64,000 nt of DNA. It comes from a virus. The stretch lies in the IMG/VR virus record IMGVR_UViG_3300032523_001141, positions 55,991-119,990 of that record; one strand, written 5' to 3'. Of the stretch, positions 12,829-63,991 are shown in pieces. The translations under genes and the position numbers were made by a program. Under the pieces are notes generated by a model. That model made no database searches. It was not told the DNA's origin and saw only the letters and a program-made list of their open reading frames with translations. Every line of letters starts with the position of its first letter. Within the stretch, counting starts at the first letter, position 1.

Positions 12829-13212
12829 TTAGCCTGCGTCTTGAGCGGCAATCGCCAGCGCGGCCTGCAGACGCAACACCGCGTCAGCGATGTGCGGCTG
12901 CTGGGCCACGACGTCGGCAGCTTGATTAAACGCCGCAACCTTTTCCGAGCCGGCCAGACCGGCAGCGACAAGAACAGCGTCGAGCTGCTCGTTGGCGCTA
13001 GCCAGTTTGGACGTTTCGACCGCGGCGGCCTTTTGCTGCTCTGCCGTATAGAGCACGTGAAGTTTCTGGGCTGCAGCCCACATACCCGAGGCTTCACTTT
13101 CATTACGCGGACGAATGCCGTGCGCTGAAAGCTTCTCGAAGAAGTAGGGCGCCGCCAGCTCGTTTACGAGTACCGCAACGCTCTGATCGGCGGCTTGCTT
13201 AACCTGATCCAT
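12829..13212 (-). CDS. Hypothetical head-associated protein (KxA motifs)
   Basis: 127 aa helical; VKQAA, QKAAA, EKVAA; SD AAGGAG. Confidence 0.6.
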   Translation of the reverse strand: MDQVKQAADQSVAVLVNELAAPYFFEKLSAHGIRPRNESEASGMWAAAQKLHVLYTAEQQKAAAVETSKLASANEQLDAVLVAAGLAGSEKVAAFNQAADVVAQQPHIADAVLRLQAALAIAAQDAG

Positions 13213-13238
13213 GTCATGTGCTCCTTGTTACGTTGTTA

Positions 13239-14168
13239 TCACTTGAAGTCCACGCGAGCGAGACCGTTCGTATGACCGAACGAGCCGCCCTGCGTGTTGT
13301 AGGCGAAGTACTCAAGCATGAACGCCTCACGACGGATATACATCGTGGTGGGCTCGAGCTCGTAGTTCTTGCCGATGAACTTCGGCGACGCGAACATGTA
13401 CATCGTGTCCGTCGGGACAAGACCGGTCTTGATCGTGACGATCCAACGGCAGTTGAGGAAATTGGTTTCCGCCCAGCCGTTCTTGATGATGTCTTGCGAG
13501 AAGTCACCACCCATCTCGTCGCGACCGAACTTGAGGAGCTCCTTGATCGTGAGGTTATTCACGAGGCAGGTTTCAACCTCAAAATGCGACGGCGTACGGG
13601 GCATGATCTTGAGAGCATCAACCAGCGTCTCGCGGGTGATACCACCATAGATTTCCTCGTACTGCACAGCGCCCGAAGCGAGGTTAGTCGCGCCGGGAGT
13701 GTCGCCAAGAACGGCGTTAAGAGCAGCAATAAACTTCGAGTCTTCCTCGGCGAGCATGTCCTTGATCATGTTGTCCGACAGAACCTGTCGGATGTCCATG
13801 ACGTACGTACGCAGCTCGTCGACGTCCTTAACAGCGCGGGGCGACACGATCCGGTCAAACATGACGCGGTAGCGAGGGCCACGGATGTAAAAGTTAATCG
13901 GGAGCGTCGCGAACGGAAGCGACACAGCCGCCGGGGAATCGGGCTCCTTGTCCACAACCTTAACGGGCTTGTCAGTATCAACCTGACGGTCGAGCTCGTC
14001 GTTGGTGATGGTCAGCGGCGGCATAATCCGCCGGTAGAACCCGTCTTCACGCATCTTGGTGCGCGTGAAGTCGTTAACCGCATCAATGGCCTGCTTTTGC
14101 ATGCCGGGGGTGTCGAGCTGCTCAAAGAGAGTCTCGTTAAGCAGCTGGATTTCTTGCTGAGTGGGCAT
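13239..14168 (-). CDS. Major capsid protein (probable HK97 fold)
   Basis: 309 aa, SD GGAGG, strong codon bias, follows protease and scaffold. TKMREDGFYRRIMPP...IKDMLAEEDSKF pattern. Confidence 0.8.
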   Translation of the reverse strand: MPTQQEIQLLNETLFEQLDTPGMQKQAIDAVNDFTRTKMREDGFYRRIMPPLTITNDELDRQVDTDKPVKVVDKEPDSPAAVSLPFATLPINFYIRGPRYRVMFDRIVSPRAVKDVDELRTYVMDIRQVLSDNMIKDMLAEEDSKFIAALNAVLGDTPGATNLASGAVQYEEIYGGITRETLVDALKIMPRTPSHFEVETCLVNNLTIKELLKFGRDEMGGDFSQDIIKNGWAETNFLNCRWIVTIKTGLVPTDTMYMFASPKFIGKNYELEPTTMYIRREAFMLEYFAYNTQGGSFGHTNGLARVDFK

Positions 14169-14207
14169 TGTTGGAACCTCCGTGTTCCGGTGAAGTTAAA
14201 AGGTTAA

Positions 14208-14768
14208 TTATTCCGCAGTGCCGGGGAGATAAGCGCTCCAAAAGGAGAGAGTATCAACGCCGTTGTGGTTGACATGCTTGCCGCTCGATACGACGCCGAC
14301 GACCGGCGTGACGTATACAGTGACAGCAGCGTTCGTAAGAACACCGGCTGTAGCAGCAGAGCCAGAAGAGGTGCCAGTCGGGGCCGTCAGCAGATCGCCG
14401 GGGGCGTACGACAGATTGGCGTTGAACTCAGTCGAGTCAATTTCGTAACCGCCAGTCGCAACTACGCCAGACAACTTACCAGACGGCGAGATTGCCTGAT
14501 GCATAAACCGACCAGACGCAGTTGTGCCCGGGTTGGACACATCGGCATCGGACGAGCCATTCAGCAGGAAGATTGCAACGTCGGTGTTGCGTACGCCGGG
14601 CAGAAAAACTTCTGCGCCGCCGACAACCTCGAGATGCACAACTCGGCCGCGGGGGACTACGAAGCTGACAGTACCCAGCTTAGCCGAGTAGTCGAGCGAC
14701 GCCATGTCGAACCAGCCCTTTTTGATATCAAGGCCATGTTCGAAAGGAAGATCAGGAGAAACAGCCAT
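14208..14768 (-). CDS. Putative capsid decoration/cement protein
   Basis: 186 aa Gly/Thr-rich beta protein (YAPGDLLT) immediately upstream of the major capsid gene. Confidence 0.55.
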   Translation of the reverse strand: MAVSPDLPFEHGLDIKKGWFDMASLDYSAKLGTVSFVVPRGRVVHLEVVGGAEVFLPGVRNTDVAIFLLNGSSDADVSNPGTTASGRFMHQAISPSGKLSGVVATGGYEIDSTEFNANLSYAPGDLLTAPTGTSSGSAATAGVLTNAAVTVYVTPVVGVVSSGKHVNHNGVDTLSFWSAYLPGTAE

Positions 14769-14814
14769 TGTAAGACCTCCGTGTCTTATTGGTGGTGAAG
14801 TAACGTATTAGAAA

Positions 14815-15237
14815 TCAACTCGTGGGCGGATTAAGACCAAGACCTGTGAACAACTTAATGTCACTTGCCCTGAGCTTGCCGTCACGAGCTCCCACGTACG
14901 AGCTTGTGACGCTAGTATTCGGATCGTACCCGGCCGACTTCTGCGTTACCGGCGCACCAATGCGAGCCATTTCGGCGGCATTCTTGTGCGACGCTAACTT
15001 AATGACCAGTTCCATAGCGCGAACTGGATCTTGCAGAGCAGCGGCCAGCGCTTCCTTCTGGTGCGATTCGATGCGCTCGTTTTCAGTGCACGCCTTCACA
15101 GCCTCGGGAATTAACTGAGCAATTTTCTCTTGCTGCGCGTCGCGACTAGCGAGCACCGACGCAGCCTTGCTCATCGCGACATCGGAAAAACCGATGTAGT
15201 CGATGACTTTTTGAACTAACTGATTCGTATCAGGCAT
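14815..15237 (-). CDS. Hypothetical head morphogenesis protein
   Basis: 140 aa helical, SD GGAGG. Confidence 0.6.
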   Translation of the reverse strand: MPDTNQLVQKVIDYIGFSDVAMSKAASVLASRDAQQEKIAQLIPEAVKACTENERIESHQKEALAAALQDPVRAMELVIKLASHKNAAEMARIGAPVTQKSAGYDPNTSVTSSYVGARDGKLRASDIKLFTGLGLNPPTS

Positions 15238-15255
15238 GGAAACCTCCGTTTAAGT

Positions 15256-16536
15256 TCAGCGACCAACGAGTTCGCGCACATGATCTTTCATGATGTCTCG
15301 CAGATGGCGCGACCGCTTGGTGCGAGCCTCTTTGACTTGAAAATTACCGGAACTCTGAAAATTAATAACAGCGTTACCGATCATTTGTAGCTCCCGAGCA
15401 GCCGCCATTTTCGGAGCCATCTCGGGCGCCATTTCAGGGGCCATCTCAGGAGCCATCTCCGGGGCCATCGCCCCTTCGCCACCGCCCTCGGCGGCAAGAC
15501 TCTGAAGCAGCGCTTCAGGCGGAATGCCAAGTTCTTGTAATGCCATCGCCAACTCTTGCAGCGCCTCGTCTTCAGACGGCGGAGCCTGCTCAAGTCCGGG
15601 CTCGCCGCCCGGTGCCGCGCCGCCCATCATTTCTTCAACGCTAACAGCTGGCGCTTCTTCGCCGCCTTCAGCTTCGCCCTCTTCGGCGTGATCTTCGCCT
15701 TCTTCAGCGGCGTCGTCGTCAGCTTGCTTCGCTGTGTAGAACCCAACGAACAGGTCAGCCATCTCGTCAGCTTCGCGCAGGGTGTTCGCGCATACGTCGC
15801 GGACACTGGCCTCGGCCGCAGCCTTATCCAGACCAAGCGCAGCGGCTAACTCGTAGCCAGCCGAAAAAGCGGCAGCCTTGTCGTTATTACGCAGCGCGGC
15901 AAAGTCGGAAGCCTCAAGCTTGCCGTCACGGGGGTCGACGTCGAGCTTGTGTTGGTTGCCCTTTAAATTGCCGCTATTGTCTTTTTTTTCTGTCACCGCT
16001 TCGGCAACGTCTTTTTCAGCCTTTTTAAAAGTAGCTGTTCCGAAGTTGACGAGGTCAGCCAGAATCTCGTTACCAAGATTGCTGCACTTGGTGTGAGCTT
16101 GTTTGAACGATACGTGGCTGTACTTCTCGCCGTCGTTGGTCTTGGCGGGATGCGAGGTGCCTGGGTCGTCTTTCGTACCCTTGTAATCTTTTTCAGCGGA
16201 CGGATCTTCGCCTGTCGCAGCGGCGTTGGTGTTGATGTTTAATTGAACATCGTCCTGACGACCTTCTTGCGACATCTCAGGTGTGTTATCAACAGCGAGG
16301 GCACCCTGCTGTTTCTTAACATCAGCCTCGTACTCAGACGCACGAGCGCCAGTCGTTGCCTTCTGCACATCGTTATCGACGTGCGCGCTGGGGTGCGTCG
16401 ACGCGCCCTGATACCCACCCGGGTCAGCGGGAACCGGCGAGGCCTGCTTAGCAGCCGCGACCTTTTCCGCGTTCTGAGAAATTTCTTCAGCCAGCGCGTT
16501 CAGTTGCGCGAAGAGCGAACGTTGCATCCGTGCCAT
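15256..16536 (-). CDS. Prohead scaffold/core protein
   Basis: Acidic, Ala-rich, many KxA motifs, PEMA repeats. Lies between protease and major capsid gene. SD AAGGAG before MARMQ. Confidence 0.6.
   Translation of the reverse strand: MARMQRSLFAQLNALAEEISQNAEKVAAAKQASPVPADPGGYQGASTHPSAHVDNDVQKATTGARASEYEADVKKQQGALAVDNTPEMSQEGRQDDVQLNINTNAAATGEDPSAEKDYKGTKDDPGTSHPAKTNDGEKYSHVSFKQAHTKCSNLGNEILADLVNFGTATFKKAEKDVAEAVTEKKDNSGNLKGNQHKLDVDPRDGKLEASDFAALRNNDKAAAFSAGYELAAALGLDKAAAEASVRDVCANTLREADEMADLFVGFYTAKQADDDAAEEGEDHAEEGEAEGGEEAPAVSVEEMMGGAAPGGEPGLEQAPPSEDEALQELAMALQELGIPPEALLQSLAAEGGGEGAMAPEMAPEMAPEMAPEMAPKMAAARELQMIGNAVINFQSSGNFQVKEARTKRSRHLRDIMKDHVRELVGR
15404..15468 (-). repeat. Degenerate 12-bp tandem repeat encoding (MAPE)n
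   Basis: MAPEMAPEMAPEMAPEMAPKM in the scaffold protein. Confidence 0.8.
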
Positions 16537-16578
16537 AGTTGTCTCCTTTGTACACCGCACATTTTATGTCGGCGTTTG

Positions 16579-18054
16579 TTACATCACATAATTCTGCATA
16601 ACACAATGCTGTGCTGTCAACCCATCAGCATCATATTTTTTCATGATTTCCGAGAACGCAGCAATTTTATACAGAGCGTAATGACGCGCAAGGGCTTTCA
16701 CTGCCGCACTGCTTGTTTCTGCTTTCTTAGTCATCGATTGAAAATTTGTTTCGTTAATAGCCGCCGGCGTTGCATTACGAATCACAGCCAGATAAGCGCG
16801 CTTTTCAACGGCTTTCGGCAACATGCTTCGCGTAGCTGCAACCCGTTCTGCCCAACTGTGAAGTCGGGCATTTGCTGCATATGCTGGATTATAAGCATTT
16901 TGCTCCAAACTTGAAACAATATCTTGCTCAGCAGCCAACTTTGAAAATATGCCGGGCAGGGCGTCGGTCACGGACGTAACCAATTCTTGTCCAGCGGCCT
17001 TAACAGTGAGGTTTAAAAAGTCCTTAACAGGCAGGATAACGCCCGCATCAGCAAGCGCGCGAAAAGCTTCAGCCAGTTTTACGTTGGCTAGTTCCGCGAT
17101 ATTAATTGTTTCCTGTACAGCCGGCGATTCGGCCAATACTGTCTTAGCCCAATTGCGGCCAAAGTCAGGGGCAGACTCGGCAGAGGCTAGCTTTTCTAGG
17201 GCAATAAGTTGCCCACGGGTATGCGCTGAAACGCCGTCTAAGTCTAAAAACATAGGGGCGGTAACGCCAAGCTGCTCTGCCAACTCAGCGCCGGAAATTA
17301 CGCCGGCGGACGCTGCTTTGAGGCGCCCCGAAATATAGGCAATACGATCGGCTGGGCGGTAAACATGAGAAATGTCAAAGAATCGAGGTTGGGTATTATC
17401 GGCGAATAAAATACTGCCGTCATACGCGCACTTGCCCATGTTGTGTTTTAAACCGCCGGCCTTGCAGTGCCCGCCGTTTTCAATTGAGTCGCAGTACTCC
17501 GCGCGGGTGCGGGCTTTGTTGCCACAATGGCTGCAAACGTCAAACGGAATGGTGCACGCCATAGACACGCCGATATCGTCGCCGTTGGCCAGCTTCTCGA
17601 GTTCTTTATCGGCTAATAACCCGCCGTTGTGGTCAGCCGCTTCTTTTGTCGCGTTGAGCACGCAGACAAGTTCAATGCGCCTCATGGGATCGTGGTACGC
17701 CGAGGCCTTTACGATTCCGTAGCTTTTAGCCGGATTTTTGTTGATATGGTCGCGGTAAAATCTTGCATGCTTAACAAACGTATCGTGATATTTTTCGCAG
17801 CATGCGCGTTTGAAACCGTCACCGTTACGATTGGGGCCGTAATCTTCAGTGGCGCCAATTGCAATTAAGTGCACAGGAACTTCATCTTTTGCGAATTTAA
17901 TGTGCTGCATTTTGTGCACAAATTCTGCGCCAGCCCGCTTTACAAGGTCAAGCTTATCGGCGCCAATAATCCCGCGGCTAGAAATTTTGATAAGCGACGC
18001 AACCGGTTCGCTGAAGTCTTGCGAATTTGGCTGGATAACCTTGATCATGCTCAT
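16579..18054 (-). CDS. Prohead maturation protease with Zn-binding insert
   Basis: NRNGDGF, FYRDH, GVSMACTIPFDVCSHCGN...CDS...C, FFDISHVYRPAD motifs typical of phage prohead serine proteases; lies upstream of scaffold and capsid. Confidence 0.75.
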   Translation of the reverse strand: MSMIKVIQPNSQDFSEPVASLIKISSRGIIGADKLDLVKRAGAEFVHKMQHIKFAKDEVPVHLIAIGATEDYGPNRNGDGFKRACCEKYHDTFVKHARFYRDHINKNPAKSYGIVKASAYHDPMRRIELVCVLNATKEAADHNGGLLADKELEKLANGDDIGVSMACTIPFDVCSHCGNKARTRAEYCDSIENGGHCKAGGLKHNMGKCAYDGSILFADNTQPRFFDISHVYRPADRIAYISGRLKAASAGVISGAELAEQLGVTAPMFLDLDGVSAHTRGQLIALEKLASAESAPDFGRNWAKTVLAESPAVQETINIAELANVKLAEAFRALADAGVILPVKDFLNLTVKAAGQELVTSVTDALPGIFSKLAAEQDIVSSLEQNAYNPAYAANARLHSWAERVAATRSMLPKAVEKRAYLAVIRNATPAAINETNFQSMTKKAETSSAAVKALARHYALYKIAAFSEIMKKYDADGLTAQHCVMQNYVM

Positions 18055-18055
18055 G

Positions 18056-19228
18056 TTATTTTTCCTGCTTTGTTGTTGCGGGAACATTGTTAAACGCGCG
18101 GTCTGTCGCGTTGCCGAGAATCCGCCCAAGAAGATTAGTGATCGCGCTCGCGCCGACGGCGCCCAAGCCGCCGCCACCGACACGCGCAATGCGCCGCCCG
18201 GTAGTGCCCTTTAAATGCGGCTTAACATCTGTTAGTGTTCGCCCGCTGGGTACGCCTTTGTTGTTTCTAATCATCTCATCAAGAATCGCTGCGCGGCGGG
18301 CTTGCTCAGCCGGTGTTCCGCCCGGACTTTGCGTCCGCACAATAGCTTCAGCATCTTGCAATTTTCCAGCTAAGCCTGCGCGCGCGGCTTGAAATTGTTT
18401 AAGTTGTGTATTGTACGCTGCTGCGTCGCCCCGCCACGCTTTGACCTCGTTATTGTATGCCGCTACGGCGTTGTTGTAATCAGTCATTGCCGTTACACTG
18501 CTCGGGTGGCCGTAGATGAAGCCGGGGAGCGTTTCGGGGCTGCGCGGCATAACCGGTGCCGGTCTAAGTCTAGGCGGTACTGCCGGCAGAGCGTCTAAAC
18601 TAGCCGCGATGGGCTGGTTGCGCTGGTTATGCGCCTCAAAAATTTTCTTTAAAACCCCGTATTCGTTTTTTGCTGCCGGACCTGTTTTACCTTTCGTGGC
18701 CTTACCGGCCGCGTCAGCGAGGCGAGCAAGAGAGCCGTGATCCGGCTTAGTGCCGGTTACTCTGTCGTAAAGCCAGCCGCCGGATCGGGCGCCGCCAACA
18801 CCGCCGGCTACGCCGCCCGCGAGCACGGCCGCACCGCCAAGCGGAGTCGAGTTCGGCCCGCCATAAACGCTCCCCGGCGGTTCTTTTTTACCGGCCGTGT
18901 CGGCTGCCGGGGCCGCAGCAGGGTCGGCCTTTGCCGAAAGCATTTCTTTGACTACCGGCGTCAATGCCGCGCCAGCAAATCCACCTAGTCCGCCCGTCAG
19001 CGCGCCGTATAGCGCATTACGCTGTTTCTGCTTTTCTTTGCCCGATGTCCCGAAATAACCGCTAGCGCCGCCGATTCCCGCGCCAATAAGTGGCATGTAC
19101 ATTAACGAACTAATAGCTGATTTAATTAGTCCACTTTCAGCGGCTTCTTTTTGCAAGCCGGCGCTATTGCCGGTAGTCGCATAAACACCGAGAAGGCTAG
19201 CAAATTTTTCAGTTGTCTGCTCGTTCAT
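18056..19228 (-). CDS. Gly/Ala-rich protein with glycine-zipper hydrophobic segments (candidate internal virion protein)
   Basis: GAGIGGASG, GALTGGLGG, AGGVAGGVGG; N-terminal EKFA, QKEAA, IKSA. Confidence 0.6.
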   Translation of the reverse strand: MNEQTTEKFASLLGVYATTGNSAGLQKEAAESGLIKSAISSLMYMPLIGAGIGGASGYFGTSGKEKQKQRNALYGALTGGLGGFAGAALTPVVKEMLSAKADPAAAPAADTAGKKEPPGSVYGGPNSTPLGGAAVLAGGVAGGVGGARSGGWLYDRVTGTKPDHGSLARLADAAGKATKGKTGPAAKNEYGVLKKIFEAHNQRNQPIAASLDALPAVPPRLRPAPVMPRSPETLPGFIYGHPSSVTAMTDYNNAVAAYNNEVKAWRGDAAAYNTQLKQFQAARAGLAGKLQDAEAIVRTQSPGGTPAEQARRAAILDEMIRNNKGVPSGRTLTDVKPHLKGTTGRRIARVGGGGLGAVGASAITNLLGRILGNATDRAFNNVPATTKQEK

Positions 19229-19235
19229 AACGTCC

Positions 19236-20570
19236 TCAAACTAAACCGCGTTGTTTATCTTGTACGTCAATGAGGTTACGCGTCCGCTCGGCCTTAATTT
19301 TTTCAAGCTCTAACAGTTGCTTTATGTCAAAATCAGCAAGCTGCCCGGCCTCGAGTCGTTTTCGCAAAAGAGCCTGCACGGTTGCGGACGAATCCATGAA
19401 ACTAGGAGCGACCTCAGCCAATTCATTAAACGCATTTGCAACCTCCCTAGGGTCGTGGCCTGAAATAACAGGATCGTTAGTTACCAAATCAGCCAGCACG
19501 CCCTGCGCCCGAATATTGCGCAGCTTCCGGTCATGGTCTGGATCTGTGATGTCTTTAAATGCCTCATTGCGCATTTCATCTGGTGATTTAATGTAGCTGT
19601 TAGCGCCCTGCCACATCGTCTCACCCAGTGCACGCGTTGCCGAAACCGGGCCGGTCGGGTATCCCGACAACGCGTCAGCTTTTTTTAGTTCGACTGGTTC
19701 CTCGGCGGGGTTTCGCAGAATCGAACCTGTTGTAACAACTATTTCCGCTTTCTTCTCTTTAGGCGGCGGGCTGGCAGCGTTAAATTTGCCCTGATACTCC
19801 TTGTATGCAGCCAGTTTTTCAAGAACTGTCTGCACAGTGGTGTACGGGCCGTTGTCGCCGAAGTGGTGTTTGCCGGTGGCGGCTTGTTTATTCAGCCATG
19901 GGTAAACTTCCGCAAGCTTTTTGAGCACTGATACGCCTTCGTCGCCAAGTCGCAGCTCAGTCTCCCGAACAGCGTCGCCAAAACTCATATTGCCCGGCGA
20001 CCGAAAATACGTCGTAAGCTCGTCCATCGCGACCGCGGCTTTGCTGTACGCCACGGTAGCAACACGGCGAATTTCTTCTGTCGCACGCTTTTCTGCTACC
20101 TTGCGGCTTTGCTCGCGCATGACCGCAGCGTGCTCGTCTCTCGGTGGCGGCGTAAACGTCTTTTCCGGAAGCGGCAGAAGCGCAGCAGCCGCTTTTTCCA
20201 TAGTCGCTTTTCGGCGGGCTAAAAACCCGGACGGCGACACCGCGTACTCAGTTGAGATAGCCGTGTCCCGAATAATCTCGCCCGAGGTTTTTACGGCTTT
20301 CGGATAAAGCGCGTCAATAATTGTGTCTACATCGGCAAGCTTGAAGTCAGCTGATTTTTCACTAACTGTTTCACCGAGCTCGCGTTGTTTAGTGGTGCGG
20401 CCTGTGTTGTAGGCATGCACCATAAGGTTTACGTAATTAGCGGGAAAATTCTCCGCTGCCGCGACTTTTATAATCGCGTCGTTAGGTTCCGCGCCGTCAT
20501 TCACGAGCGCGGCGGCCTTTTCAATAGCCGAGAGCAGTTTTGTCTCGGCGTCTTTGCTTAAAGGACGCAT
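19236..20570 (-). CDS. Hypothetical virion/core protein (KxA motifs)
   Basis: 444 aa helical; EKAAA, EKSA, NKQAA, KKAD. Confidence 0.65.
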   Translation of the reverse strand: MRPLSKDAETKLLSAIEKAAALVNDGAEPNDAIIKVAAAENFPANYVNLMVHAYNTGRTTKQRELGETVSEKSADFKLADVDTIIDALYPKAVKTSGEIIRDTAISTEYAVSPSGFLARRKATMEKAAAALLPLPEKTFTPPPRDEHAAVMREQSRKVAEKRATEEIRRVATVAYSKAAVAMDELTTYFRSPGNMSFGDAVRETELRLGDEGVSVLKKLAEVYPWLNKQAATGKHHFGDNGPYTTVQTVLEKLAAYKEYQGKFNAASPPPKEKKAEIVVTTGSILRNPAEEPVELKKADALSGYPTGPVSATRALGETMWQGANSYIKSPDEMRNEAFKDITDPDHDRKLRNIRAQGVLADLVTNDPVISGHDPREVANAFNELAEVAPSFMDSSATVQALLRKRLEAGQLADFDIKQLLELEKIKAERTRNLIDVQDKQRGLV

Positions 20571-48043: not shown

Positions 48044-49555
48044 TTAACGCGTAAGTACTACCTGATGTCCGGCAAATAAAATACGCCACCCATTGTTCAG
48101 CAGCCACGGCACGGCTTTAGCGCCCTTGCCACTGCACTTCGCGCCTTCGTACAGCGTGTCGTCAAATACAATCAGACCCCCGGGCGCTACCTTATCAGCG
48201 CAGAGCTGCGCTTCCGCGAGGCCGTGCTCTTCATGGCCGGCGAGGTATGTGTCCATGCTGTCGAGATAGAACAGATCTACTGGCTCATCTATTTCTTGCA
48301 GCGCGACCAGCGAGTCGGCGCACTTGGTTGTGACTGCGTGGAGGTTATTGCAAATACGGGCGGCATACGCGCTGTGCTCAAGGCTTAAATCGATGCTGAG
48401 CAGCCGGCCTTTTAGGCGTTGCGCAAATAACCCGAATAAAAACGTCGAGTACCCGGCGCCGGCCCAGTCGTTGTCAGAACGTATACAGCCCGTCTCTACC
48501 ATGACGGGTGGGCGACAACGGGCGACCAAATGGTCGAAGATCAGGCCAAAACTCAAGTGGCGGTCGACAAGCACTTTGGGCGCGTGCGCCACGCCTACTA
48601 CGCCGCCATTGCACTTTTTTGTGCAAAGCTGCAGCTGTACATCATGCGCCTGATTTTCTTCAATCCAGCGCGGCGGGGCGAGCATAAGCTGCGCTGCTTG
48701 CGCCACGTACTCCGCAGTAATCTCAGGCTGCGGCACAGTGTTGTACACATGCGCGCTGGCCGTATTTAATTCAACCTGATTGCGGACAATGTTTACGCAA
48801 TTTTTGCGCGGAATAGCGTAATTTGCCGGATTGTGGCCGAACCACACGCCCAACGACGGCGCGTCAATCATGCCGGCCAGATGATACGGACCGCTATCTA
48901 CGCCAATCACTAAATCGGCAAGGCCGATCAGCCCAACAAGCGCGTCGAGGCCGATAAGTTTACGCTCGTAATGATACAAGATGTTCCGTGAGCGCGCAGA
49001 GTGAAACCACGATGTTCTGTGATCCCAATCTAGAAAGATAACTGAGCCGGTCGTGTTTGACAGCAAGATGCGCGCGATGTCGCTGGCCATGTCCGGCGAC
49101 ATGTTTTTCTCCGACGACGACGTGTTGCCCTGCGAGTGAATTAACGTAATCGGGCGCTGCAGATCGGCCACAATTGGCGCCACACGTTCGGAGTAAGATT
49201 TAAACGCCAGCAAGTCGCGATTTTCAAGATACTCGTCCCAAAGCTCAGTGGTGGCTTTGACGCGCGGGGGCATCGGCAAACTGCAAAAATTTCGCCGGAT
49301 TTTATTCTCAACCAAAAAGTCATCCGGACCTAACGCGCGGTGTCGGTTAGGCTCGTACCACGGATGCGGGCGAGCCGTCCCGTTCTCTGTGGTTAGTTGC
49401 GTCGGAACGCCGACGGCCTCGAAGACCGCGCGTTTGTTTTTTGCGCACACAACCACCAGATCAACGCCGCGGCGTCGATACAGCAGCACTTGGTGCGCAA
49501 AATTTGCGCAATCTCCGAGGCCGTGATGAAACGCTACGTAAAATGGCTCAGACAT
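48044..49555 (-). CDS. GT9 glycosyltransferase fused to class I SAM methyltransferase
   Basis: HGLGD, ADLVIGVDSGPYHLA; then VETG, DLFYLDS, PGGLIVFDD, GKG. Confidence 0.8.
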   Translation of the reverse strand: MSEPFYVAFHHGLGDCANFAHQVLLYRRRGVDLVVVCAKNKRAVFEAVGVPTQLTTENGTARPHPWYEPNRHRALGPDDFLVENKIRRNFCSLPMPPRVKATTELWDEYLENRDLLAFKSYSERVAPIVADLQRPITLIHSQGNTSSSEKNMSPDMASDIARILLSNTTGSVIFLDWDHRTSWFHSARSRNILYHYERKLIGLDALVGLIGLADLVIGVDSGPYHLAGMIDAPSLGVWFGHNPANYAIPRKNCVNIVRNQVELNTASAHVYNTVPQPEITAEYVAQAAQLMLAPPRWIEENQAHDVQLQLCTKKCNGGVVGVAHAPKVLVDRHLSFGLIFDHLVARCRPPVMVETGCIRSDNDWAGAGYSTFLFGLFAQRLKGRLLSIDLSLEHSAYAARICNNLHAVTTKCADSLVALQEIDEPVDLFYLDSMDTYLAGHEEHGLAEAQLCADKVAPGGLIVFDDTLYEGAKCSGKGAKAVPWLLNNGWRILFAGHQVVLTR

Positions 49556-51625: not shown

Positions 51626-54478
51626 TTACCGCACTTTCGGTGGCGTTGCCGGTTTTGCTGGCGCGGCGAGGGAGGTCGGCTGGCGACGAGCGTTGATGGC
51701 CGCCTGCTTTATTGCCTGCTGCTTAAAACTGTGGTCCCACCAAGCCTTCATGCCAGCAGCGTCCAGCGTAGCGGGGTTCTGCATATGACTGGGCTTTTTG
51801 GCAGGAGTGCCAGTGGCTACGCTCGTCGCCGGGCGGGGAGCTGCCTTAAACGGTGACGGCGCTGGCGCTGGCGTTAAAGACGGCGGGTCAATATCGGTGG
51901 ACGGAAGCACCCTTGGGCGCGCGACGGTCGGCTGTAGAGGCGCCGGGCGCAAATAATTGTGCCGCGCCCCGACGGTTGTTTGAAATGGCGTCATCTTTTT
52001 CCCGGGCTGCACTGAGCCTTTATTAACGTAAAGGTTGTACAACTGCTGGTCAGTAGCTTTTGGGTTATAGGCTATTCCGTGCTGTTTAAACGCCGCTTCC
52101 GCATAAGCGCGGTCAAATGGTGTCTTACTAAACTGCGGCTGCGCCGGTTGTTGCGGGGCGGCTTGAGGCGGACACACGCCGCCCGGGCACGCAACCTGCA
52201 CTGCTTTTTTCTCAATCTTTTTCTTCTTTTTCTTGCCGCCAATCGGGCGGCAGGAGTCGTTGCTGTAAGGCTTCTTGCCCGGCACAGGCTCGTAACCAGA
52301 CCAGCAACGCGCAGCTTTACGCATAACGTGCAGGCTAGTTTTTTTCCAGCCGCGGTTGGCTAGCTGCTGCGCTTCAAATTTAGCGCGTTCTGGTGTGCCG
52401 GGAGCGCCAAAGTAACGCGCACTCCATGTTCCGGGTTTAGCTGCTTCGGGAGAAAGTCCGAGCGTGCGGGCGGCGAAAGTATCCCACCCAGGTTCTTGTA
52501 ACCGCTCTTTTGCCAACGTATTAAAATTTTGATTTACGTGTTGGGCAGCGTTGTTATACATGTAATTAGGATCCTCTGAATCAGCCATAAACTTTTCAGC
52601 CGTTGCGCTAAAGTTAGCGTAAGGCCCAACTTCTTCACGCACTTTTGCAAGCTCTGCTTTAGCTGCGTCTGGGCCTTGCTTAGAAGCCGCTTCAAGCCTG
52701 CCGCGGATATCAGCTTCGTTAGGTGCTTTGCCGCCGAGCGCGCCAATTACACTTCCAATACCGCTGTTAGCAGCCTCAGCCGCTTCTTGGCCAAACAAGC
52801 CGCCACTAGCGCCGGCTAACCCCGCCGCGCCAATACCGAGCGCCCCCAGTAACATACCGGCTCCGCTGCCGCCTAACACTCCGAGAAGCGCTAACGGTAC
52901 GCCAATGGCAAAAGCCATCTGCCCGGCAGTTCCTAAACCTTCCCACATCTGAGTAATTTGCCCAAACTCGCGCGGACTGTTGGCGCCGGCCCCGCCTGTG
53001 GCATCGTTAACAAAATTGCCGAGCGCAGGCTGCATATATTCTTTTTCAAACGCTTGCGCCTCTGGCGTCTTTTCGCCTCTTGCAAACGCGGCGGCAGCTG
53101 TTTGCGTCGGCGCGTCAAGGTTTAACGTGCTAGCGTAATCAGTGATAAGCGTTTCGCGCGCTTTCGGGTCCGTTGTAGTTTTAAGCTTAGCCTGCAGGTC
53201 AGTAGCCGCGGCGGTTTGCTGCTCTGGCGTAAGTTGCGGCTTATCAGCAACTGGAGCCGCTGTACCGGCACCTGTAGCAGCTACGCCGCCCGCACCACCA
53301 GCGGCATAAGGCAGGCGCTCTTTGTCCGCCGCCGGTGCCGCTGTGGGTGGTGTAGCCGGCGGCGGCACTACCGGTTTTGGATTAGCGCCAACAGCGTCAA
53401 CTGCTAGCGTATTAAACTGCGCTTGCAGCTCGGGGCTAAGTTTTGCGACATCATCCATCGAACTAATGTTATTATTGGCTAAGAACGTTTCAAATTGGCT
53501 TGGCGGCTTATCAGCAACTGGAGCCGCGGTACCAGCACCTGTTGCAGCTACGCCGCCCGGACCACCCGCGGCGTAAGGCAGCCGCTCTTTATTTGCAATC
53601 GGAGCTGCGGAGGCGGGCAGCGGTGATGGCGCTAAATCTGCCTGCGGCTGATTAGAGCCTGGAAAAATATAGTTACCAACCGCGCGGGAAACATCGGCGG
53701 TGGCGTTCAACGCCGTCGGCATCGGGAACATTAGGGTGCCAGCAACTGGATTTGATGTTAACGGTACTCCTGTATTTTCTTCAATTTGTTGTGCGCCTTG
53801 ATGCAATGCAAAGTTGCCCGTGCCCACGTAGCCCATGTTAGGGCCGGCAGTTCCAGTTAAACGCCGCCATCGATCAAAAATAGCTTTAGCCGGATTTCCG
53901 CCAGCAGCGGCAGGGGCAGGAGCAGGCGCCGAAGGCGCTGGCACACCGCCTGCAGCCGGAACAGGCGCAGGAGCAGAAGCCGGCGCTGGAGTTGGAGCGG
54001 GTTTGGGCGCGGGCGCTGGAGTTGGCGCTATCTTTGGCGCCGGTGCCTGCGCGTTTGGAGAGTTATACAGTAATTTATTAAGAGCCTCTGGGTCGCCACT
54101 CTTTCGCGCGGCGTCAATAGCTGCGCGCTGTTTAGGAGAAATCAAAGGAACGTTCGGAAACCGAAGCGCTGGTTTTGCCGTTGTCGCGGCAGCGTCAACA
54201 ACTGGCGCTGCAGCATTAACGACAGGTGTTACGGCCTTTGCTGCTGGCTTTGCGGCTGTTGCGGCTGCATCAACAACTGGCGTTACAGCTTTAGCCGCAG
54301 GCTTTGCTGCGCCTCTGAAAGCTGTAACTGCGTTTCCCGCAAGAGTTCCAAGCGCGGCCAAGGCATTAGCAGATTGTTTTACAGTGTCCAGTTTATCTGC
54401 GCGGGCCAGCGCCAAATTAACTAAAGCTTTTGCGTATTCGCGATGCAGGATCTCAGTCGCTAATTTCTTCTGCGCCAT
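51626..54478 (-). CDS. Large Ala/Pro-rich modular protein with TM segments and CWxGY module
   Basis: ~950 aa; VKQSA, RKAA, EKKA linkers; CWSGYEPVPGKKPYSNDSC; glycine-zipper helices. Confidence 0.7.
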   Translation of the reverse strand: MAQKKLATEILHREYAKALVNLALARADKLDTVKQSANALAALGTLAGNAVTAFRGAAKPAAKAVTPVVDAAATAAKPAAKAVTPVVNAAAPVVDAAATTAKPALRFPNVPLISPKQRAAIDAARKSGDPEALNKLLYNSPNAQAPAPKIAPTPAPAPKPAPTPAPASAPAPVPAAGGVPAPSAPAPAPAAAGGNPAKAIFDRWRRLTGTAGPNMGYVGTGNFALHQGAQQIEENTGVPLTSNPVAGTLMFPMPTALNATADVSRAVGNYIFPGSNQPQADLAPSPLPASAAPIANKERLPYAAGGPGGVAATGAGTAAPVADKPPSQFETFLANNNISSMDDVAKLSPELQAQFNTLAVDAVGANPKPVVPPPATPPTAAPAADKERLPYAAGGAGGVAATGAGTAAPVADKPQLTPEQQTAAATDLQAKLKTTTDPKARETLITDYASTLNLDAPTQTAAAAFARGEKTPEAQAFEKEYMQPALGNFVNDATGGAGANSPREFGQITQMWEGLGTAGQMAFAIGVPLALLGVLGGSGAGMLLGALGIGAAGLAGASGGLFGQEAAEAANSGIGSVIGALGGKAPNEADIRGRLEAASKQGPDAAKAELAKVREEVGPYANFSATAEKFMADSEDPNYMYNNAAQHVNQNFNTLAKERLQEPGWDTFAARTLGLSPEAAKPGTWSARYFGAPGTPERAKFEAQQLANRGWKKTSLHVMRKAARCWSGYEPVPGKKPYSNDSCRPIGGKKKKKKIEKKAVQVACPGGVCPPQAAPQQPAQPQFSKTPFDRAYAEAAFKQHGIAYNPKATDQQLYNLYVNKGSVQPGKKMTPFQTTVGARHNYLRPAPLQPTVARPRVLPSTDIDPPSLTPAPAPSPFKAAPRPATSVATGTPAKKPSHMQNPATLDAAGMKAWWDHSFKQQAIKQAAINARRQPTSLAAPAKPATPPKVR
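53238..53590 (-). repeat. 86-bp intragenic direct repeat (two copies)
   Basis: 53238-53323 and 53505-53590 both encode KERLPYAAGG(P/A)GGVAATGAGTAAPVADKP. Confidence 0.85.
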
Positions 54479-54869
54479 TTGGTACATCCTTGTCTGGCTG
54501 GCCAGCACGAACGACGTCCTTGTCGCTGTGGTGCGTGCTGAACTCAAACATCATCGACTCTTCAAGCCCATGAAACTTGTGCCACATTCCCGGCGGAATA
54601 TGGAAGGCCATATCAGGCGTCAGTATCAACTGTGCGGCGGCGTTTACGTCTTCGTCCCATCCGTAGGTTAAAAGCACTTTGCCGCGCTCTAGATACATCA
54701 CCTCGTCTTTAACTTTGTGGTAGTGAAAGCTGCACTCTTTGCTTTTTTCAATAAACAGCTTTTTGCCGCAATAGCGCCCGTTCCAAATCCAATCTTCGTA
54801 GCCCCACTTCTTTTCAACGTATACGCGTTGCTCAGCGTTAACTACAAACCGTTTTTGGTTGACGCCCAC
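54453..54869 (-). CDS. Cupin-domain protein
   Basis: KKWGYE, SFHYHKVKDE, IPPGMWHKF. Confidence 0.8.
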   Translation of the reverse strand: MGVNQKRFVVNAEQRVYVEKKWGYEDWIWNGRYCGKKLFIEKSKECSFHYHKVKDEVMYLERGKVLLTYGWDEDVNAAAQLILTPDMAFHIPPGMWHKFHGLEESMMFEFSTHHSDKDVVRAGQPDKDVPNGAEEISD

Positions 54870-55036: not shown

Positions 55037-55507
55037 TCAGACTTGGCCGGGCATTTTTGATTTGCCGTCAAGCGAGCCTGCGTCGCCAAGCTCTTCAACA
55101 GGGTTACTCTTTTTTGGCTTAAATGAGTCAACAAGCCTGAAGCTTTGCGGTGCTTTTGGATTCAAATCTGGATATTGATTGCCTGCGGGCAATTGTCCGC
55201 TGACTACCGGCTTTGCGGCTAAAAGCTTTGCCAGTTCTGGGCCAGCAGCGTAGCCGCCAGCGCCGCCAGCAAGAGCGGCAAGAATAGCCGGCATATAGGA
55301 GCCGTCGCCGCGCTCTTCGTCTTCCTTTGAGCGCATAAGCTTCTGGATCCCCATCGCGCCAAGGCCGGCTGCCGTAGCGCCACCAGCAGCGCCCATAACT
55401 TCCGGCGTCATGTACTGCGACAGAGCCGAAAAGTCAGGAAGCATGCTTTCGCCTGCGGCGATCTTTTGCGTAAACCGGCGTAAAACCTGTACGTCTTTAG
55501 CACTCAT
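55037..55507 (-). CDS. Glycine-zipper protein (QKIAA)
   Basis: GAAGGATAAGLG and ALAGGAGG helices. Confidence 0.65.
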   Translation of the reverse strand: MSAKDVQVLRRFTQKIAAGESMLPDFSALSQYMTPEVMGAAGGATAAGLGAMGIQKLMRSKEDEERGDGSYMPAILAALAGGAGGYAAGPELAKLLAAKPVVSGQLPAGNQYPDLNPKAPQSFRLVDSFKPKKSNPVEELGDAGSLDGKSKMPGQV

Positions 55508-60301: not shown

Positions 60302-61135
60302 CTATTTTTCTAGTGTGTGAAGGTGGGGGCTCAGCGTTAACCGACTTTGAATGCTGAGCTCATGCAACTCGATTTGCGAGTTAATCCAGTCATAATACAG
60401 GCTCACGCGCGTATGGCCGGATTCTGTATGATACCGGCTGTCTGGTTTTTTTCCGATATCACACATGACAAACGAGTGAATGCCGGCTAGTTTGTTACCG
60501 AGAAAAAGGCCGCCGCCTGAGTCTCCTGAGCAAATTAAATACTCAAGCTCAGTTCGGTTTTGCTGGCTAGGGGTAAGAATAAGCGCAGGGCCGCGGGCTA
60601 GCTCTATTTTATTGCTGCCCGCGCGCCGTTTTTCGTCATCAGCGTTTGGGCCCGTTAAGAATGTGCCGTTTGAGCCATAGCCGGCCAAGCTGCAAATCTG
60701 GTCTTGCTCGTCAAAGTCTTTATAGAGTTCTGGATAAAACGCTAATTTCATATCATCGGCGATATAGCACAGCGCTATGTCGTGCAGGCCCAAAATTTGA
60801 GGCTCTGGCGTATAGTCTGCGTGAATAATCTGCTTTGCAACCGCGACCGTACGGCCGTCGTCAAACATTAGTACCGCTTCGTCGGCTTCATAAAGCACGT
60901 GCGCGGCTGTAATTGCCCAATTGGGCCGTATGAGCACCGCAGACGCAAAAGCCGTCGTGCGGCCATTTTTGCGGGGATAGATAGCCCGCAAACGAGCGAC
61001 GCAATTAAATTTTGCGCCATAAGCAAGATATTTAGTATCTGGAGTGTTGGGGTCGCGGGTGCCTGAGTAACTTGGGGCTGGTAGAAGAAGCGTAATACCC
61101 AAAATTAAAGATAGCAATAGATTGACGCGTCGCAT
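60302..61135 (-). CDS. Secreted trypsin-like serine protease
   Basis: Signal peptide; TAAHV, HDIAL, GDSGGG catalytic triad; SD AAGGAGG. Confidence 0.9.
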   Translation of the reverse strand: MRRVNLLLSLILGITLLLPAPSYSGTRDPNTPDTKYLAYGAKFNCVARLRAIYPRKNGRTTAFASAVLIRPNWAITAAHVLYEADEAVLMFDDGRTVAVAKQIIHADYTPEPQILGLHDIALCYIADDMKLAFYPELYKDFDEQDQICSLAGYGSNGTFLTGPNADDEKRRAGSNKIELARGPALILTPSQQNRTELEYLICSGDSGGGLFLGNKLAGIHSFVMCDIGKKPDSRYHTESGHTRVSLYYDWINSQIELHELSIQSRLTLSPHLHTLEK

Positions 61136-61229: not shown

Positions 61230-62513
61230 CTATTTGTGTTTAAGCTCTAATTGCGGCGCACCAGCTTCATTCATAAACTGCATGCTTTTTGGTTCTGTAA
61301 ACCTAAACCGCTGGCTTACCCACGGATGCTCTTCAGTAAGCACGTTGTCCCAGAAAAGCCGGCCGAGCAAGCTGCCAATAAAAGACGTATTTGTTTGGTC
61401 TTTTGAATAGCCGGGCAGCTCTGCTTGCGCGCCATACCACTTTGGATTCAAAACTTTTCGGCCGGTGATCGCGTCCCAGATGTATTTCTTCTCGTTAGAA
61501 GTTGGCGTAACGTCCCACCGATCAAGCACGCGGCCTTCAAGATTTTTACCGTCTGGCTTTGTCGCAAGCAGCTGATCGCCAAGCAGCGTACTAGAACCAA
61601 ACAAGCCAAAATCTGATGTAGTGACTCCGCTAGAGCCGCTATTCATATTGGCTATAGAACTTTGTGGAGACACCAGCATTTCATTCCTATGTTGCATTGA
61701 TGCGCCGTGCTCGTCTTTGGTTTTCCACGGCAAATTGGTTGGCATAAACAAATTATTCAAGCGCCGCAGATAATCCGGTGACTTCTCGTTAAGCGAGTAA
61801 TAGTCTGGGCCTTTGCCGCCTTTATTTTTCTGCCAGTAATCTGCCCCCGCGTCACTATGCACGCCAAAAGACCGCCGAGTAAGTTCACGGCGCGATTGCA
61901 CAACGTCGTCAAGTACATCTTTGTTCCCGCCCAACGCTGGCAAAAGTGCCTTGAGCTCTTCGGGGTCGTAGGCCGGCTTGTCTGCAAAAAACGCGCGACC
62001 AAATTGCGCAAAAGATTTAGGCGTTAAATCAGCGCTGCCGTACCCAGCCGGAATTTTAACGTTAGAGATATACCGACGCGCGCGGTCACCGACAACATTT
62101 GCGCCCACGCCACCGATTGCCGCGCCCGTAAGAATACGCCGCAATGCTGTCGGCAACTTTTTCTTGTCTTTAGGCGTCGGAGAAAGCATGTCATAAAGCG
62201 CGCCACCACCAGCTCCCGCAGCAGCTCCAAGCAGAATATCCTTGGTATGCACGCCCGGCAGCTGCGCTTTAATGCTCTGCCAGTCTGCAGCTTTTAAAAG
62301 TTTCTTGCGCTGCTGGTCTTCCTGATGCCGTTTATACAGCAGCATTAAGCCCAGTGCGCCGACGCCTGCAAGCGGCACGCCAGCAGCCAAATAACCCTTT
62401 GGGATATTGGAGTATGGCGTGTACGTGTTCGTAAACCCCGGCTCAGTGTTTGCACTTAGCGTGGGGTCTGTCTGTGCAATTTGTGCCGCGTCGTCAACGG
62501 TGAAGTCTGCCAT
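61230..62513 (-). CDS. Glycine-zipper modular protein (LKAAD linker)
   Basis: 427 aa; GAAAGAGGGALY, GAAIGGVG. Confidence 0.65.
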   Translation of the reverse strand: MADFTVDDAAQIAQTDPTLSANTEPGFTNTYTPYSNIPKGYLAAGVPLAGVGALGLMLLYKRHQEDQQRKKLLKAADWQSIKAQLPGVHTKDILLGAAAGAGGGALYDMLSPTPKDKKKLPTALRRILTGAAIGGVGANVVGDRARRYISNVKIPAGYGSADLTPKSFAQFGRAFFADKPAYDPEELKALLPALGGNKDVLDDVVQSRRELTRRSFGVHSDAGADYWQKNKGGKGPDYYSLNEKSPDYLRRLNNLFMPTNLPWKTKDEHGASMQHRNEMLVSPQSSIANMNSGSSGVTTSDFGLFGSSTLLGDQLLATKPDGKNLEGRVLDRWDVTPTSNEKKYIWDAITGRKVLNPKWYGAQAELPGYSKDQTNTSFIGSLLGRLFWDNVLTEEHPWVSQRFRFTEPKSMQFMNEAGAPQLELKHK

Positions 62514-62545
62514 GAAAAAAGCTTCCTAATGTGTGAGCCGCTTTT

Positions 62546-63991
62546 TCAGCCTTCTTCGTCGCTACCGTCTTGTTTCTTTTTCTTCTTCTTGCTCATAAGG
62601 TGATACGCCAGCGCGGATAACCCAGCAGCGCCAAGCCCAGCACCGCCAATTGCGCCCCACGGCAAGTCAGCTAAACCAGCCATAGCGCTTGGCGCGTCAG
62701 CTTTAGGGGCGTCAGCTTTAGGGGCGTCAGCTTTAGGGGCGTCAGCTTTAGGGGCGTCAGCTTTAGGGGCGGCGGGTTTGGTGCCACGTGGGAATGGCGT
62801 CATACCCGGCTTATCGGGGCCGGTAAAAAGCTCAGGGCCGAGCGTGCTGGCCGCATAAGCGCCCTCGCCTATTGCTTTACCGGCGCTAAGCCGCGCGTTG
62901 TTTACCGCAGATGCGCCCGAGCTTATTGCGTTACCGGCACTACTCGCAGCACTACGGCCGGCGTTAAGTAACGACGCCAGCAGCGTGAGTTTTTCCGGAA
63001 CAAGGTCGAGTTTCTGCCCCCCGACTGGCGGCATTCGCGACGGTGCTTGCCCGGGCGCATACTCAGAAGCGTACGGCGACATTTTTGCCGGCATTTGATC
63101 TAGCAGATTAGATCGCACCGGCCGACTCGAGGACGGCGCAACATTACCTGTTAAATTCTCTAAATCATATGCGACCTTCCAGCCAAACGCGTAAGCGCTT
63201 TTTTGGCCAGAGTTATGAATGTCTTTTTCAGCGTGCTCGGTCTCTTCGGTAGCTTCTACGCCGCCGTTAGCTTTTGAAATAGCCTCGTCGGCGTCCATGG
63301 CTTGCATCGGGCCAGTTTGATACACGCCGCGGTCATAATTCTTGTACATGCCCGAATCACACGGAACGCACTTGCTCTTAGCTTCTTTTTTGGCTTTTTC
63401 CTTGTATTCGCTGTCGCTGCTGTTAAATAGCTCGGCGCTCGGCTTCTCGCCCGCAGCTTCAGCCCGCATCAGCGCGTTGTTAAAGCTCTCGTGGTCGGGC
63501 AGCTTCTTTTTAGTCTCGTCTTTTGGGGCCCGTTCGTAGAAGTCCACGCGGTTTGCGACCTTGCGGCCAAAATTAGCCGCGCCAGATTTCACAGGAAGCC
63601 GAGGAGGCGGCGGAGGAGGCATAGCCGGCGAAGGGTTGCCCGCACCAGCACGACGCGCGGCAAATTCCCGAAATTGCGGACCCATGACCTGCTGCAGTTC
63701 TTGAGGAGTACCGCCGCCAGCGTTAAGACGAGCTCGCATAGCCGAGTCCGCGTTTTGTTGCGTTGCGCGGGTGACCACGGGAGCTCGACTAGTCGGCAGA
63801 GTATATCCTAGGCCAGCGTCATTCATGCGCTTCATTTCAGCCATTTCAGTTGGCGTTAATTTGGGTGGCGTCGCAGGAGTGGCCGCAGGAGTGGCCGCAG
63901 GAGTGGCCGCAGGAGTGGCCGCAGGAGGTTTGGGCGCAAGAGGTTTGGGCGCAAGAGGTTTGGGCGGAGCAGGCATAGGCGGAGCAGGCAT
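62546..63991 (-). CDS. Pro/Ala-rich modular protein with C-terminal TM and poly-Lys (start may lie beyond the window)
   Basis: KSGAANFGRKVA and KSAYAFGWKVA linkers; PKADA, PAAT and PKPLA repeats. Confidence 0.65.
   Translation of the reverse strand: MPAPPMPAPPKPLAPKPLAPKPPAATPAATPAATPAATPATPPKLTPTEMAEMKRMNDAGLGYTLPTSRAPVVTRATQQNADSAMRARLNAGGGTPQELQQVMGPQFREFAARRAGAGNPSPAMPPPPPPRLPVKSGAANFGRKVANRVDFYERAPKDETKKKLPDHESFNNALMRAEAAGEKPSAELFNSSDSEYKEKAKKEAKSKCVPCDSGMYKNYDRGVYQTGPMQAMDADEAISKANGGVEATEETEHAEKDIHNSGQKSAYAFGWKVAYDLENLTGNVAPSSSRPVRSNLLDQMPAKMSPYASEYAPGQAPSRMPPVGGQKLDLVPEKLTLLASLLNAGRSAASSAGNAISSGASAVNNARLSAGKAIGEGAYAASTLGPELFTGPDKPGMTPFPRGTKPAAPKADAPKADAPKADAPKADAPKADAPSAMAGLADLPWGAIGGAGLGAAGLSALAYHLMSKKKKKKQDGSDEEG
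62694..62770 (-). repeat. 15-bp tandem repeat x5 encoding PKADA
   Basis: GCGTCAGCTTTAGGG repeated five times. Confidence 0.9.
63873..63990 (-). repeat. 12-bp (PAAT) x4 and 15-bp (PKPLA/MPAPP) tandem repeats
   Basis: GCAGGAGTGGCC x4, then GAGGTTTGGGCGCAA-type units. Confidence 0.85.

Follow-up and report, generated by a model that had tools for sequence, protein, structure and literature searches.

Lys-x-Ala is over-represented and conserved in the head-assembly proteins of a large uncultured phage and is a candidate prohead-protease recognition motif

Introduction

The window analysed here, 64,000 nucleotides of virus DNA corresponding to bases 55991-119990 of a single 119,990-bp contig (IMG/VR record IMGVR_UViG_3300032523_001141), carries all of its long open reading frames (ORFs) on the minus strand and includes a block of head-assembly genes whose products are rich in K-x-A, a lysine and an alanine separated by one residue (K.A in pattern notation). 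Reading down the block, the genes encode a conserved 804-residue protein, a head-core-like protein, a variable 390-residue protein, a protease-like protein, a scaffold-like protein, a protein of 140 residues, the major capsid protein and a 127-residue Ala-rich protein, and a further ORF (14208-14768) sits between the genes of the 140-residue and capsid proteins (Table 1). Here, we show that K-x-A is strongly over-represented and conserved in six of these neighbouring head-assembly proteins, and that the signal is local to them. Prohead proteases read short motifs, and to our knowledge those mapped in large myoviruses all end in Glu. We argue that K-x-A is probably the recognition motif of a prohead protease acting on the head block, with the cut probably falling before Ala or Ser.

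Relatives of the capsid gene were found at 63 IMG/VR loci (55-100% identity), and since many of these loci sit on contigs of 190-235 kb, the contig is probably the incomplete genome of a ~200-kb phage from a large uncultured clade. The GC content of relatives whose capsid proteins are 55-75% identical (loci L002-L064 and G001-G005) spans 49% to 69%. Except for the protease-like protein, which matches phrog_2774 ('unknown function', E 4e-12), no head-module protein matched a PHROG or Pfam family, and the scaffold-like protein is so called by its gene position only.

Table 1. Genes, domains and motif sites of the window. Expected counts come from per-ORF shuffles; K and A values give conservation among orthologs; q is the Benjamini-Hochberg (BH) corrected value.
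Feature	Position	Strand	Details
Tail sheath	5664-8567	-	PHROG/Pfam
Ala-rich protein, 127 aa, downstream of capsid gene	12829-13212	-	4 K-x-A, all K-x-A-[AS]; 4 vs 1.5 expected
Major capsid protein, 309 aa	13239-14168	-	tblastn to annotated Arash major capsid protein, 28% identity, E 2e-24
K25-Q-A27, sole K-x-A of capsid protein	14088-14096	-	K 0.96, A 0.96; kept in 45/47 orthologs
Head-module protein, 140 aa	14815-15237	-	6 K-x-A vs 1.5 expected, q 0.046
Scaffold-like protein, 434 aa, directly downstream of protease-like gene	15256-16560	-	9 K-x-A vs 4.8 expected
Protease-like protein, 491 aa	16579-18054	-	15 K-x-A vs 5.3 expected, BH q 0.02
Candidate catalytic domain, N-terminal 265 residues	17260-18054	-	invariant H62, H103, S111, S164 and G73-N-R-N-G-D79 loop
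K246-A-A248, then Ser, in disordered linker	17311-17319	-	K 0.96, A 1.00 in 45 orthologs; K.A in 43/45
Variable head-module protein, 390 aa	18056-19228	-	K-x-A at residues 8, 27, 36; ortholog in 7/63 loci
Head-core-like protein, 444 aa	19236-20570	-	14 K-x-A vs 4.7 expected, q 0.012
Conserved protein, 804 aa, upstream edge of module	23992-26406	-	9 K-x-A vs 4.7 expected, p 0.038
RNA-polymerase beta/beta'-like genes, two, inside structural region	29324-33772 and 26476-28356	-	PHROG/Pfam
Pro/Ala/Met-rich protein, 236 aa, between the two RNA-polymerase genes	28590-29300	-
K18-A-A20 of the Pro/Ala/Met-rich protein	29241-29249	-	residues 18-20: K-x-A in 9/11 distinct orthologs, K-E-S in 2/11
2H phosphoesterase (PF22547) and NUDIX fusion, 644 aa	41803-43737	-	four K-x-A-[AS]
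Volactin (PF25216), actin-like	44602-45606	-	Pfam E 4e-63, match over full length
Glycosyltransferase-9 and methyltransferase fusion	48044-49555	-	phrog_24975
Cysteine-dioxygenase-like protein	54453-54869	-	phrog_7851, E 5e-38
Trypsin-family serine protease	60302-61135	-	Pfam Trypsin E 4e-16

Results

K-x-A is over-represented in the head proteins

Across the 66 ORFs of the window, K.A occurs 158 times against 137.2 expected (z 2.0) and K.A[AS] 52 times against 25.6 (z 5.4). The excess lies in six head-module ORFs, those of the 804-residue, head-core-like, protease-like, scaffold-like, 140-residue and Ala-rich proteins, where K.A reaches 57 against 22.6 expected (z 8.0) and K.A[AS] 26 against 4.4 (z 10.6), in a set picked after the counts were known. 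The remaining 60 window ORFs have no excess (K.A 101 against 115.2, z -1.5; K.A[AS] 26 against 20.8, z 1.1). Counted per lysine, 57 of the 169 lysines of the six head ORFs are part of K-x-A, versus 101 of 1038 in the other window ORFs, and the tail genes are nearly devoid of K-x-A-[AS] sites. When each of the 116 ORFs of the whole contig was tested on its own, three reached a BH q below 0.05 (those of the protease-like, head-core-like and 140-residue proteins), and head-module genes took six of the top seven ranks.

A first-pass annotation, made from the DNA sequence, had read K-x-A as a window-wide code. All 18 peptide strings that it quoted occur in minus-strand ORFs at the genes it named, and the excess beyond Lys/Ala composition is real in the head module, but the 60 non-head ORFs show no excess, which speaks against a code that spans the window. 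It had also described a frequent F-G prefix, which did not stand (FG[KRW] 10 against 6.4 expected, z 1.4); the actual upstream preference is L or F at -2 and E at -1. Its placement of K-x-A near N-termini applies to 8 of 10 ORFs in a row (12829 to 20570) together with 23992-26406, but not to the genome as a whole, where 29 of 116 ORFs have K.A within their first 40 residues against 23.8 expected (p 0.13).

The pair and its spacing are specific

In a scan of all 400 a-x-b pairs over five head ORFs, K.A was the sole significant pair (48 against 17.8, z 8.2, family-wise p<0.0005), the runner-up reaching z 3.6, and nothing was enriched at gaps of 1, 3 and 4. KA, K..A, K...A and A.K are not enriched, so the spacing is specific, and the excess of K.A[AS] is specific both to Lys among the 20 possible first-position residues and to this spacing. 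Arg does not stand in for Lys, R.A occurring 8 times in the five head ORFs. Pairs that contain Glu are not enriched either: E.A occurs 119 times against 124 expected in the window, and none came near the top of the head-ORF scan.

Local composition does not remove the signal, as the head-ORF z stays at 7.8-8.8 when residues are shuffled inside blocks of 8-40 residues, and with K-A-A left out K[^A]A still occurs 39 times against ~15 expected. All eight Lys/Ala codon combinations are in use among the K-x-A sites of the head ORFs, which places the signal at the protein level, and no paralogy among the head proteins was found as a source of the motif. In a three-position scan of the whole contig, which was dominated by poly-Ser and Pro/Ala repeats, K.AA ranked 4th (family-wise p 0.14).

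A positive control was provided by phage T4, in which I/L-x-E is the established cleavage motif of gp21. The same pair scan applied to T4 gp67, gp68, gp21 and gp22 placed I.E first (z 4.2) and L.E second (z 3.9).

Lys and Ala are conserved within variable surroundings

Ortholog alignments of 40-45 distinct sequences show many sites at which identity is 0.9-1.0 for K and A and 0.1-0.3 for the middle residue and the flanks. In five proteins (48 sites), K scores 0.70 and A 0.75 inside K.A versus 0.56 and 0.58 elsewhere (Mann-Whitney p 0.005 for K and 2e-5 for A); the flanking residues, at 0.44-0.54, are under the protein mean. One example is residue 61 of the Ala-rich protein, where K reaches 0.95 and A reaches 0.98 and the flanks on the +4 to +6 side are at 0.02-0.12. 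Across seven families, there are 48 columns at which at least 60% of orthologs retain K.A; these include nine columns in the scaffold-like protein (45 orthologs; e.g. residues 33, 38 and 246), nine in the head-core-like protein (45 orthologs, the site at residue 35 being present in 45/45), seven in the 804-residue protein (26 orthologs) and five in the 140-residue protein (40 orthologs). A hard-threshold scan for conservation islands also put K.A at the top, yet in only 4 of 43 islands. The motif has the extended form [L/F]-[E/V/T/I]-K-x-A-[A/S], in which position -1 is E (26%, 3.6-fold) or V, T or I, and position +3 is A (35%) or S (16%).

The conserved K25-Q-A27 of the capsid protein, its only copy of the motif, is a candidate site for the removal of a 27-residue N-terminal peptide. 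The capsid protein of Salmonella phage Arash carries K-E-A at residues 26-28.

The signal recurs in related phages

Of fifteen divergent loci queried, 13 yielded three or more orthologs (25-49% identical to the window proteins), and in each of these 13 K.A was the top pair (z 5.5-11.3). Three relatives with GC contents of 49-69% were ranked whole, over every coding-strand ORF. In G005 (224 kb, 69% GC, 201 ORFs), only 26 of whose ORFs have a blastp homolog in the studied contig, orthologs of the same six head genes fill the top four ranks and six of the top seven, with that of the 804-residue protein at rank 6. The ortholog of the protease-like protein ranks first both in G004 (225 ORFs), where that of the head-core-like protein is second, and in G003 (277 ORFs), where that of the 804-residue protein is second; no single ORF of G004 or G003 passed the false discovery rate (FDR). 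Among 19 coding sequences around the capsid gene of phage Arash, K.A is enriched in four, namely gp220 (10 against 3.1 expected), gp222 (7 against 3.2), gp223 (8 against 3.0) and gp225 (7 against 1.8), of which gp222 is a 491-aa homolog of the protease-like protein (37% identity).

The protease-like protein

The AlphaFold model of the protease-like protein (predicted local distance difference test, pLDDT, 70.8) has an N-terminal alpha/beta domain (~residues 1-240), a disordered segment (223-271) and a helical C-terminal half. The invariant residues of the candidate catalytic domain come from 12 sequences of 43-86% identity. The best VIA-align match of the N-terminal domain is T4 gp21 (5jbl_C; root-mean-square deviation 3.8, 134/166 residues aligned), with a Z of 6.2 that is middling by the tool's scale and under its caution line of 8; the runner-up has Z 3.3, and herpesvirus proteases have Z 2.1-3.3. 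The model thus gives a weak indication of a T4-gp21/assemblin-like fold, and membership of a named family is not supported by sequence methods.

The profile of this domain matches 3,449 cluster representatives at E<=0.001. Many of the homologs are 600-1300 aa long through the presence of one to three inteins, and all seven long homologs scanned (P0121, P0138, P0140, P0172, P0241, P0262 and P0266) had Hint, intein or LAGLIDADG matches, some of the Hint, Intein_splicing and LAGLIDADG matches falling below Pfam cut-offs. The insertion points, at ~residues 72-74, 102-107 and 165-169 in window numbering, adjoin the invariant motifs. Because inteins usually sit in functionally critical motifs, this placement fits an enzyme.

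The scaffold-like and capsid genes follow just downstream of this gene, and its position is the same in Arash (gp222 upstream of gp226) and in Mycobacterium phage Pleione. In the protein, the conserved K246-A-A248 falls in the 223-271 segment, where pLDDT is below 50, and is a candidate self-cleavage site.

Possible substrates outside the head block

The first-pass annotation had extended the motif to about 12 unrelated ORFs, as members of a large protein set with genes far from the head operon; the lack of excess in the 60 non-head ORFs and the chance frequency of N-terminal sites genome-wide speak against such a set. Nor do they bear out a T4-type arrangement, in which a capsid-targeting peptide and a cleavage site mark proteins encoded elsewhere. 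Beyond the head block, a single candidate substrate was found, the 236-residue Pro/Ala/Met-rich protein, in which the K-x-A site comes after a conserved N-terminal helix (N-x-E-L-L-R-L-A-R) and before a variable low-complexity region. Two other ORFs, 33790-34755 and 55037-55507, are unsupported as outside substrates, with 2 and 1 usable orthologs. The RNA-polymerase subunits (1482 and 626 residues) contain 0 K.A[AS]; the Arash homologs of both genes are abundant in virions according to the Arash report (PMC10585845).

Two enriched ORFs of G005 lack a blastp homolog in the studied contig: 210933-214577 (1214 aa; K.A 23 against 11.8, q 0.04) and 175018-177171 (717 aa; K.A 17 against 9.1, q 0.13). 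Both could be additional substrates of the protease in that phage.

Other genes of the window

Few window genes could be named by PHROG and Pfam. Besides those in Table 1, they include genes for PhoH and a helicase. The 2H phosphoesterase and NUDIX fusion has a homolog in G005 for its 2H part only. The contig proteome as a whole is rich in poly-serine (SSS 222 against 20.6 expected; S.SS 196 against 20.4) and in Pro/Ala repeats (P.PA 41 against 14.8).

For the head-core-like protein, a search of phage records gave no match, and an Atlas match was unusable (poor Atlas model, pLDDT 0.49). The 804-residue protein had no match in phage-record and Atlas searches, and its 884 homologs are all unnamed. 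Its own model has a pLDDT of 51.6, the BFVD comparison gave a template-modelling score of ~0.08, and a wide VIA search returned only small-domain or helical matches (Z<=5.7). A portal identity was considered for this protein and was not established, there being no phage-record, Atlas or clear fold match.

Discussion

We have shown that K-x-A stands out in the head gene families of this phage and its relatives, and we argue that it probably serves as the recognition motif of a prohead protease. In our proposed mechanism, the N-terminal domain of the protease-like protein, with its putative T4-gp21/assemblin-like fold, would be the prohead maturation protease. It would recognise Lys at P3 together with Ala at P1, cutting before a small P1' residue, Ala or Ser; these positions are assigned because of the analogy to the L/I-x-E sites of T4 and the A-x-E sites of SPN3US. 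The capsid protein would lose ~27 residues, the protease would separate itself from its C-terminal half at K246-A-A248, and the core and scaffold proteins would be cut in many places, allowing them to exit the head or rearrange within it. We infer the cutting, the enzyme responsible and the bond that would be cut from the way in which K-x-A behaves: it is the sole outlier of 400 pairs, it forms conserved islands, it is placed suggestively in the capsid protein and the linker, and its signature resembles that of the T4 control. In this respect the proposal of the first-pass annotation survives, but only for the head block and not as a code for a large set of internal proteins encoded beyond the head operon.

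Several observations weigh against this interpretation. No cleavage products have been seen, and the Arash virion proteome gives coverage and not peptides. That coverage is 80-100% for gp220, gp223 and gp225 and 85% for gp222 (PMC10585845), which would mean that at least some copies are uncut or that the sample contained unprocessed material. As for the enzyme, Pfam has no match to the protease-like protein at E<=0.01, its alignment used as a profile against the PDB returned one spurious match only, and hhalign to T4 gp21 gave a probability of 0.4. T4 gp21 supplied the only high-probability Foldseek matches (0.90-0.97), but at E 0.16-0.31, and the VIA-align score is under the caution line. The invariant His and Ser come from the sequence alignment and are candidate catalytic residues. 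Conserved K.A sites at residues 39, 53, 95, 137 and 154 lie inside the folded N-terminal domain and others in predicted helices, where access is uncertain. On the statistical side, the choice of the six ORFs followed the counts, so that the unbiased tests are the FDR applied ORF by ORF and the recurrence in further genomes; the orthologs in turn share ancestry and are not independent samples. Finally, gene starts were set by first-start heuristics, and N-terminal positions may move by a few residues.

The motif could instead be structural, an uncleaved helix-surface contact through which core and scaffold proteins pack or bind the capsid interior. The many sites predicted to be helical in the C-terminal half of the protease-like protein, the Ala-rich composition of the head proteins and the high virion coverage of the Arash homologs (PMC10585845) would all fit such a role. 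However, an i/i+2 pair is out of step with the period of a helix, and neither K..A nor K...A shows enrichment. Sites are also found in the linker at 246-248, which is disordered, very close to N-termini (residues 5-8) and, in a single copy, towards the N-terminus of the capsid protein, and the true cleavage motif of T4 has the same statistical signature; we therefore regard a structural role as unlikely, if worth bearing in mind. We give still less credence to a different protease that reads K-x-A by cutting after Lys, be it the trypsin-like protein of the window or a host enzyme, and consider it very improbable. The Pfam Trypsin match (E 4e-16) and the position of Lys, together with Ala, as the most conserved residue speak for it. 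Yet searches of five of five relatives that are 90-100% complete, and a blastp search of G005, gave no homolog of the trypsin-like protein, and the motif persists there. Moreover, Arg does not replace Lys as trypsin-type specificity would allow, and an invariant Ala two residues on fits P3 and P1 better.

Whether K-x-A could act more widely, as a packaging and maturation code on many internal head proteins across the window, is a matter on which the Pro/Ala/Met-rich protein, with its conserved N-terminal helix and K-x-A, and the two enriched G005 ORFs without homologs in the studied contig are favourable evidence; Arash packages many proteins, RNA polymerase included (PMC10585845). Against this stand the other 60 window ORFs, in which K.A falls below expectation, N-terminal K.A at chance frequency, RNA-polymerase subunits devoid of K.A[AS], and the lack of ortholog support for 33790-34755 and 55037-55507, and the wide version appears quite unlikely to us. 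Chance or Lys/Ala composition can practically be dismissed: the modest window-wide K.A (z 2.0) and genome-wide K.AA (family-wise p 0.14) would be compatible with it, but for the head module it is refuted by a z of 8 under local-composition controls and by replication in genomes of 49-69% GC.

With cleavage by a prohead protease as the preferred reading, the question is how new such a motif would be. No description of a K-x-A prohead-protease motif was found in a literature search whose coverage left out most subscription journals, and the top matches of a broader search, as far as their accessible text goes, had Glu-type motifs only. It is conceivable, and we offer it as a tentative extension that may well not hold in full, that K-x-A|(A/S) represents an undescribed specificity class of assemblin-fold prohead proteases, with a herpesvirus-like Ala|Ser and Lys at P3, in an unannotated family (the 3,449 cluster representatives) spanning ~200-kb environmental phages, Arash and possibly Bixzunavirus. 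In some of these phages, the motif behind a short N-terminal helix might also load or trim cargo, as in the Pro/Ala/Met-rich protein and the two G005 ORFs. If this is true, Lys-x-Ala would add a new specificity, one linked to a protease family without a name in current libraries. One could then predict the ends of the mature capsid, scaffold and core proteins across hundreds of uncultured ~200-kb phages, and phage and herpesvirus maturation sites would be linked at the level of the scissile bond. A direct test is possible in Salmonella phage Arash, a cultured relative for which virion mass spectra exist.

Comparison with known systems

In T4, the L/I-x-E sites of gp21 occur in gp22, gp67, gp68, gp23, gp24 and internal proteins. 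The head block resembles this system in its gene order of core proteins, protease, scaffold and capsid, in a P3-x-P1 style motif that is densely repeated in core and scaffold proteins and also occurs in the protease itself, with the same scan signature, and in gp21 being the best fold match of the N-terminal domain. It differs in having Ala in place of Glu at P1 and Lys in place of Leu or Ile at P3, in the lack of sequence similarity to gp21, and in the fusion of the protease to a helical C-terminal half of ~250 residues.

Herpesvirus assemblin has the maturation site (V/L/I)-x-A|S, and by this consensus the likeness is in Ala at P1 and in Ser or Ala at P1', the latter corresponding to the +3 preference described above. 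The difference is at P3, where Lys takes the place of a hydrophobic residue. Herpesvirus proteases of the assemblin fold are among the lower fold matches, and weakly so.

The phiKZ protease gp175 has the motif S/A/G-x-E. According to a study of SPN3US, the motif of its gp245 is A-x-E, P4 being occupied by Val and P1' by Ser, and giant-phage proteases act on several motif copies per propeptide, on short and long N-terminal propeptides and on themselves (PMC10052503). Our phage is likewise large, with virion RNA-polymerase genes in its structural region and a small residue preferred at P1'. The multiple motif copies, N-terminal propeptides and self-cleavage described there have counterparts here that are predicted from sequence. 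The motif is Lys/Ala here in contrast to Ala/Glu, nothing here points to many substrates beyond the head block, and the predicted N-terminal capsid peptide of 27 residues compares with more than 100 in SPN3US.

A further parallel to the protease-like protein is gp100 of the Bixzunavirus Pleione (PHROG 2774), a 1369-aa protein annotated as hypothetical only. In Pleione gp100 and gp101 taken together, K.A is the top pair (17 against 8.3), yet it is not significant (z 3.3, family-wise p 0.38). The N-terminal domain of gp100 is homologous to that of the protease-like protein (26% identity, E 1e-6), and its gene holds the same position, between the portal and capsid genes.

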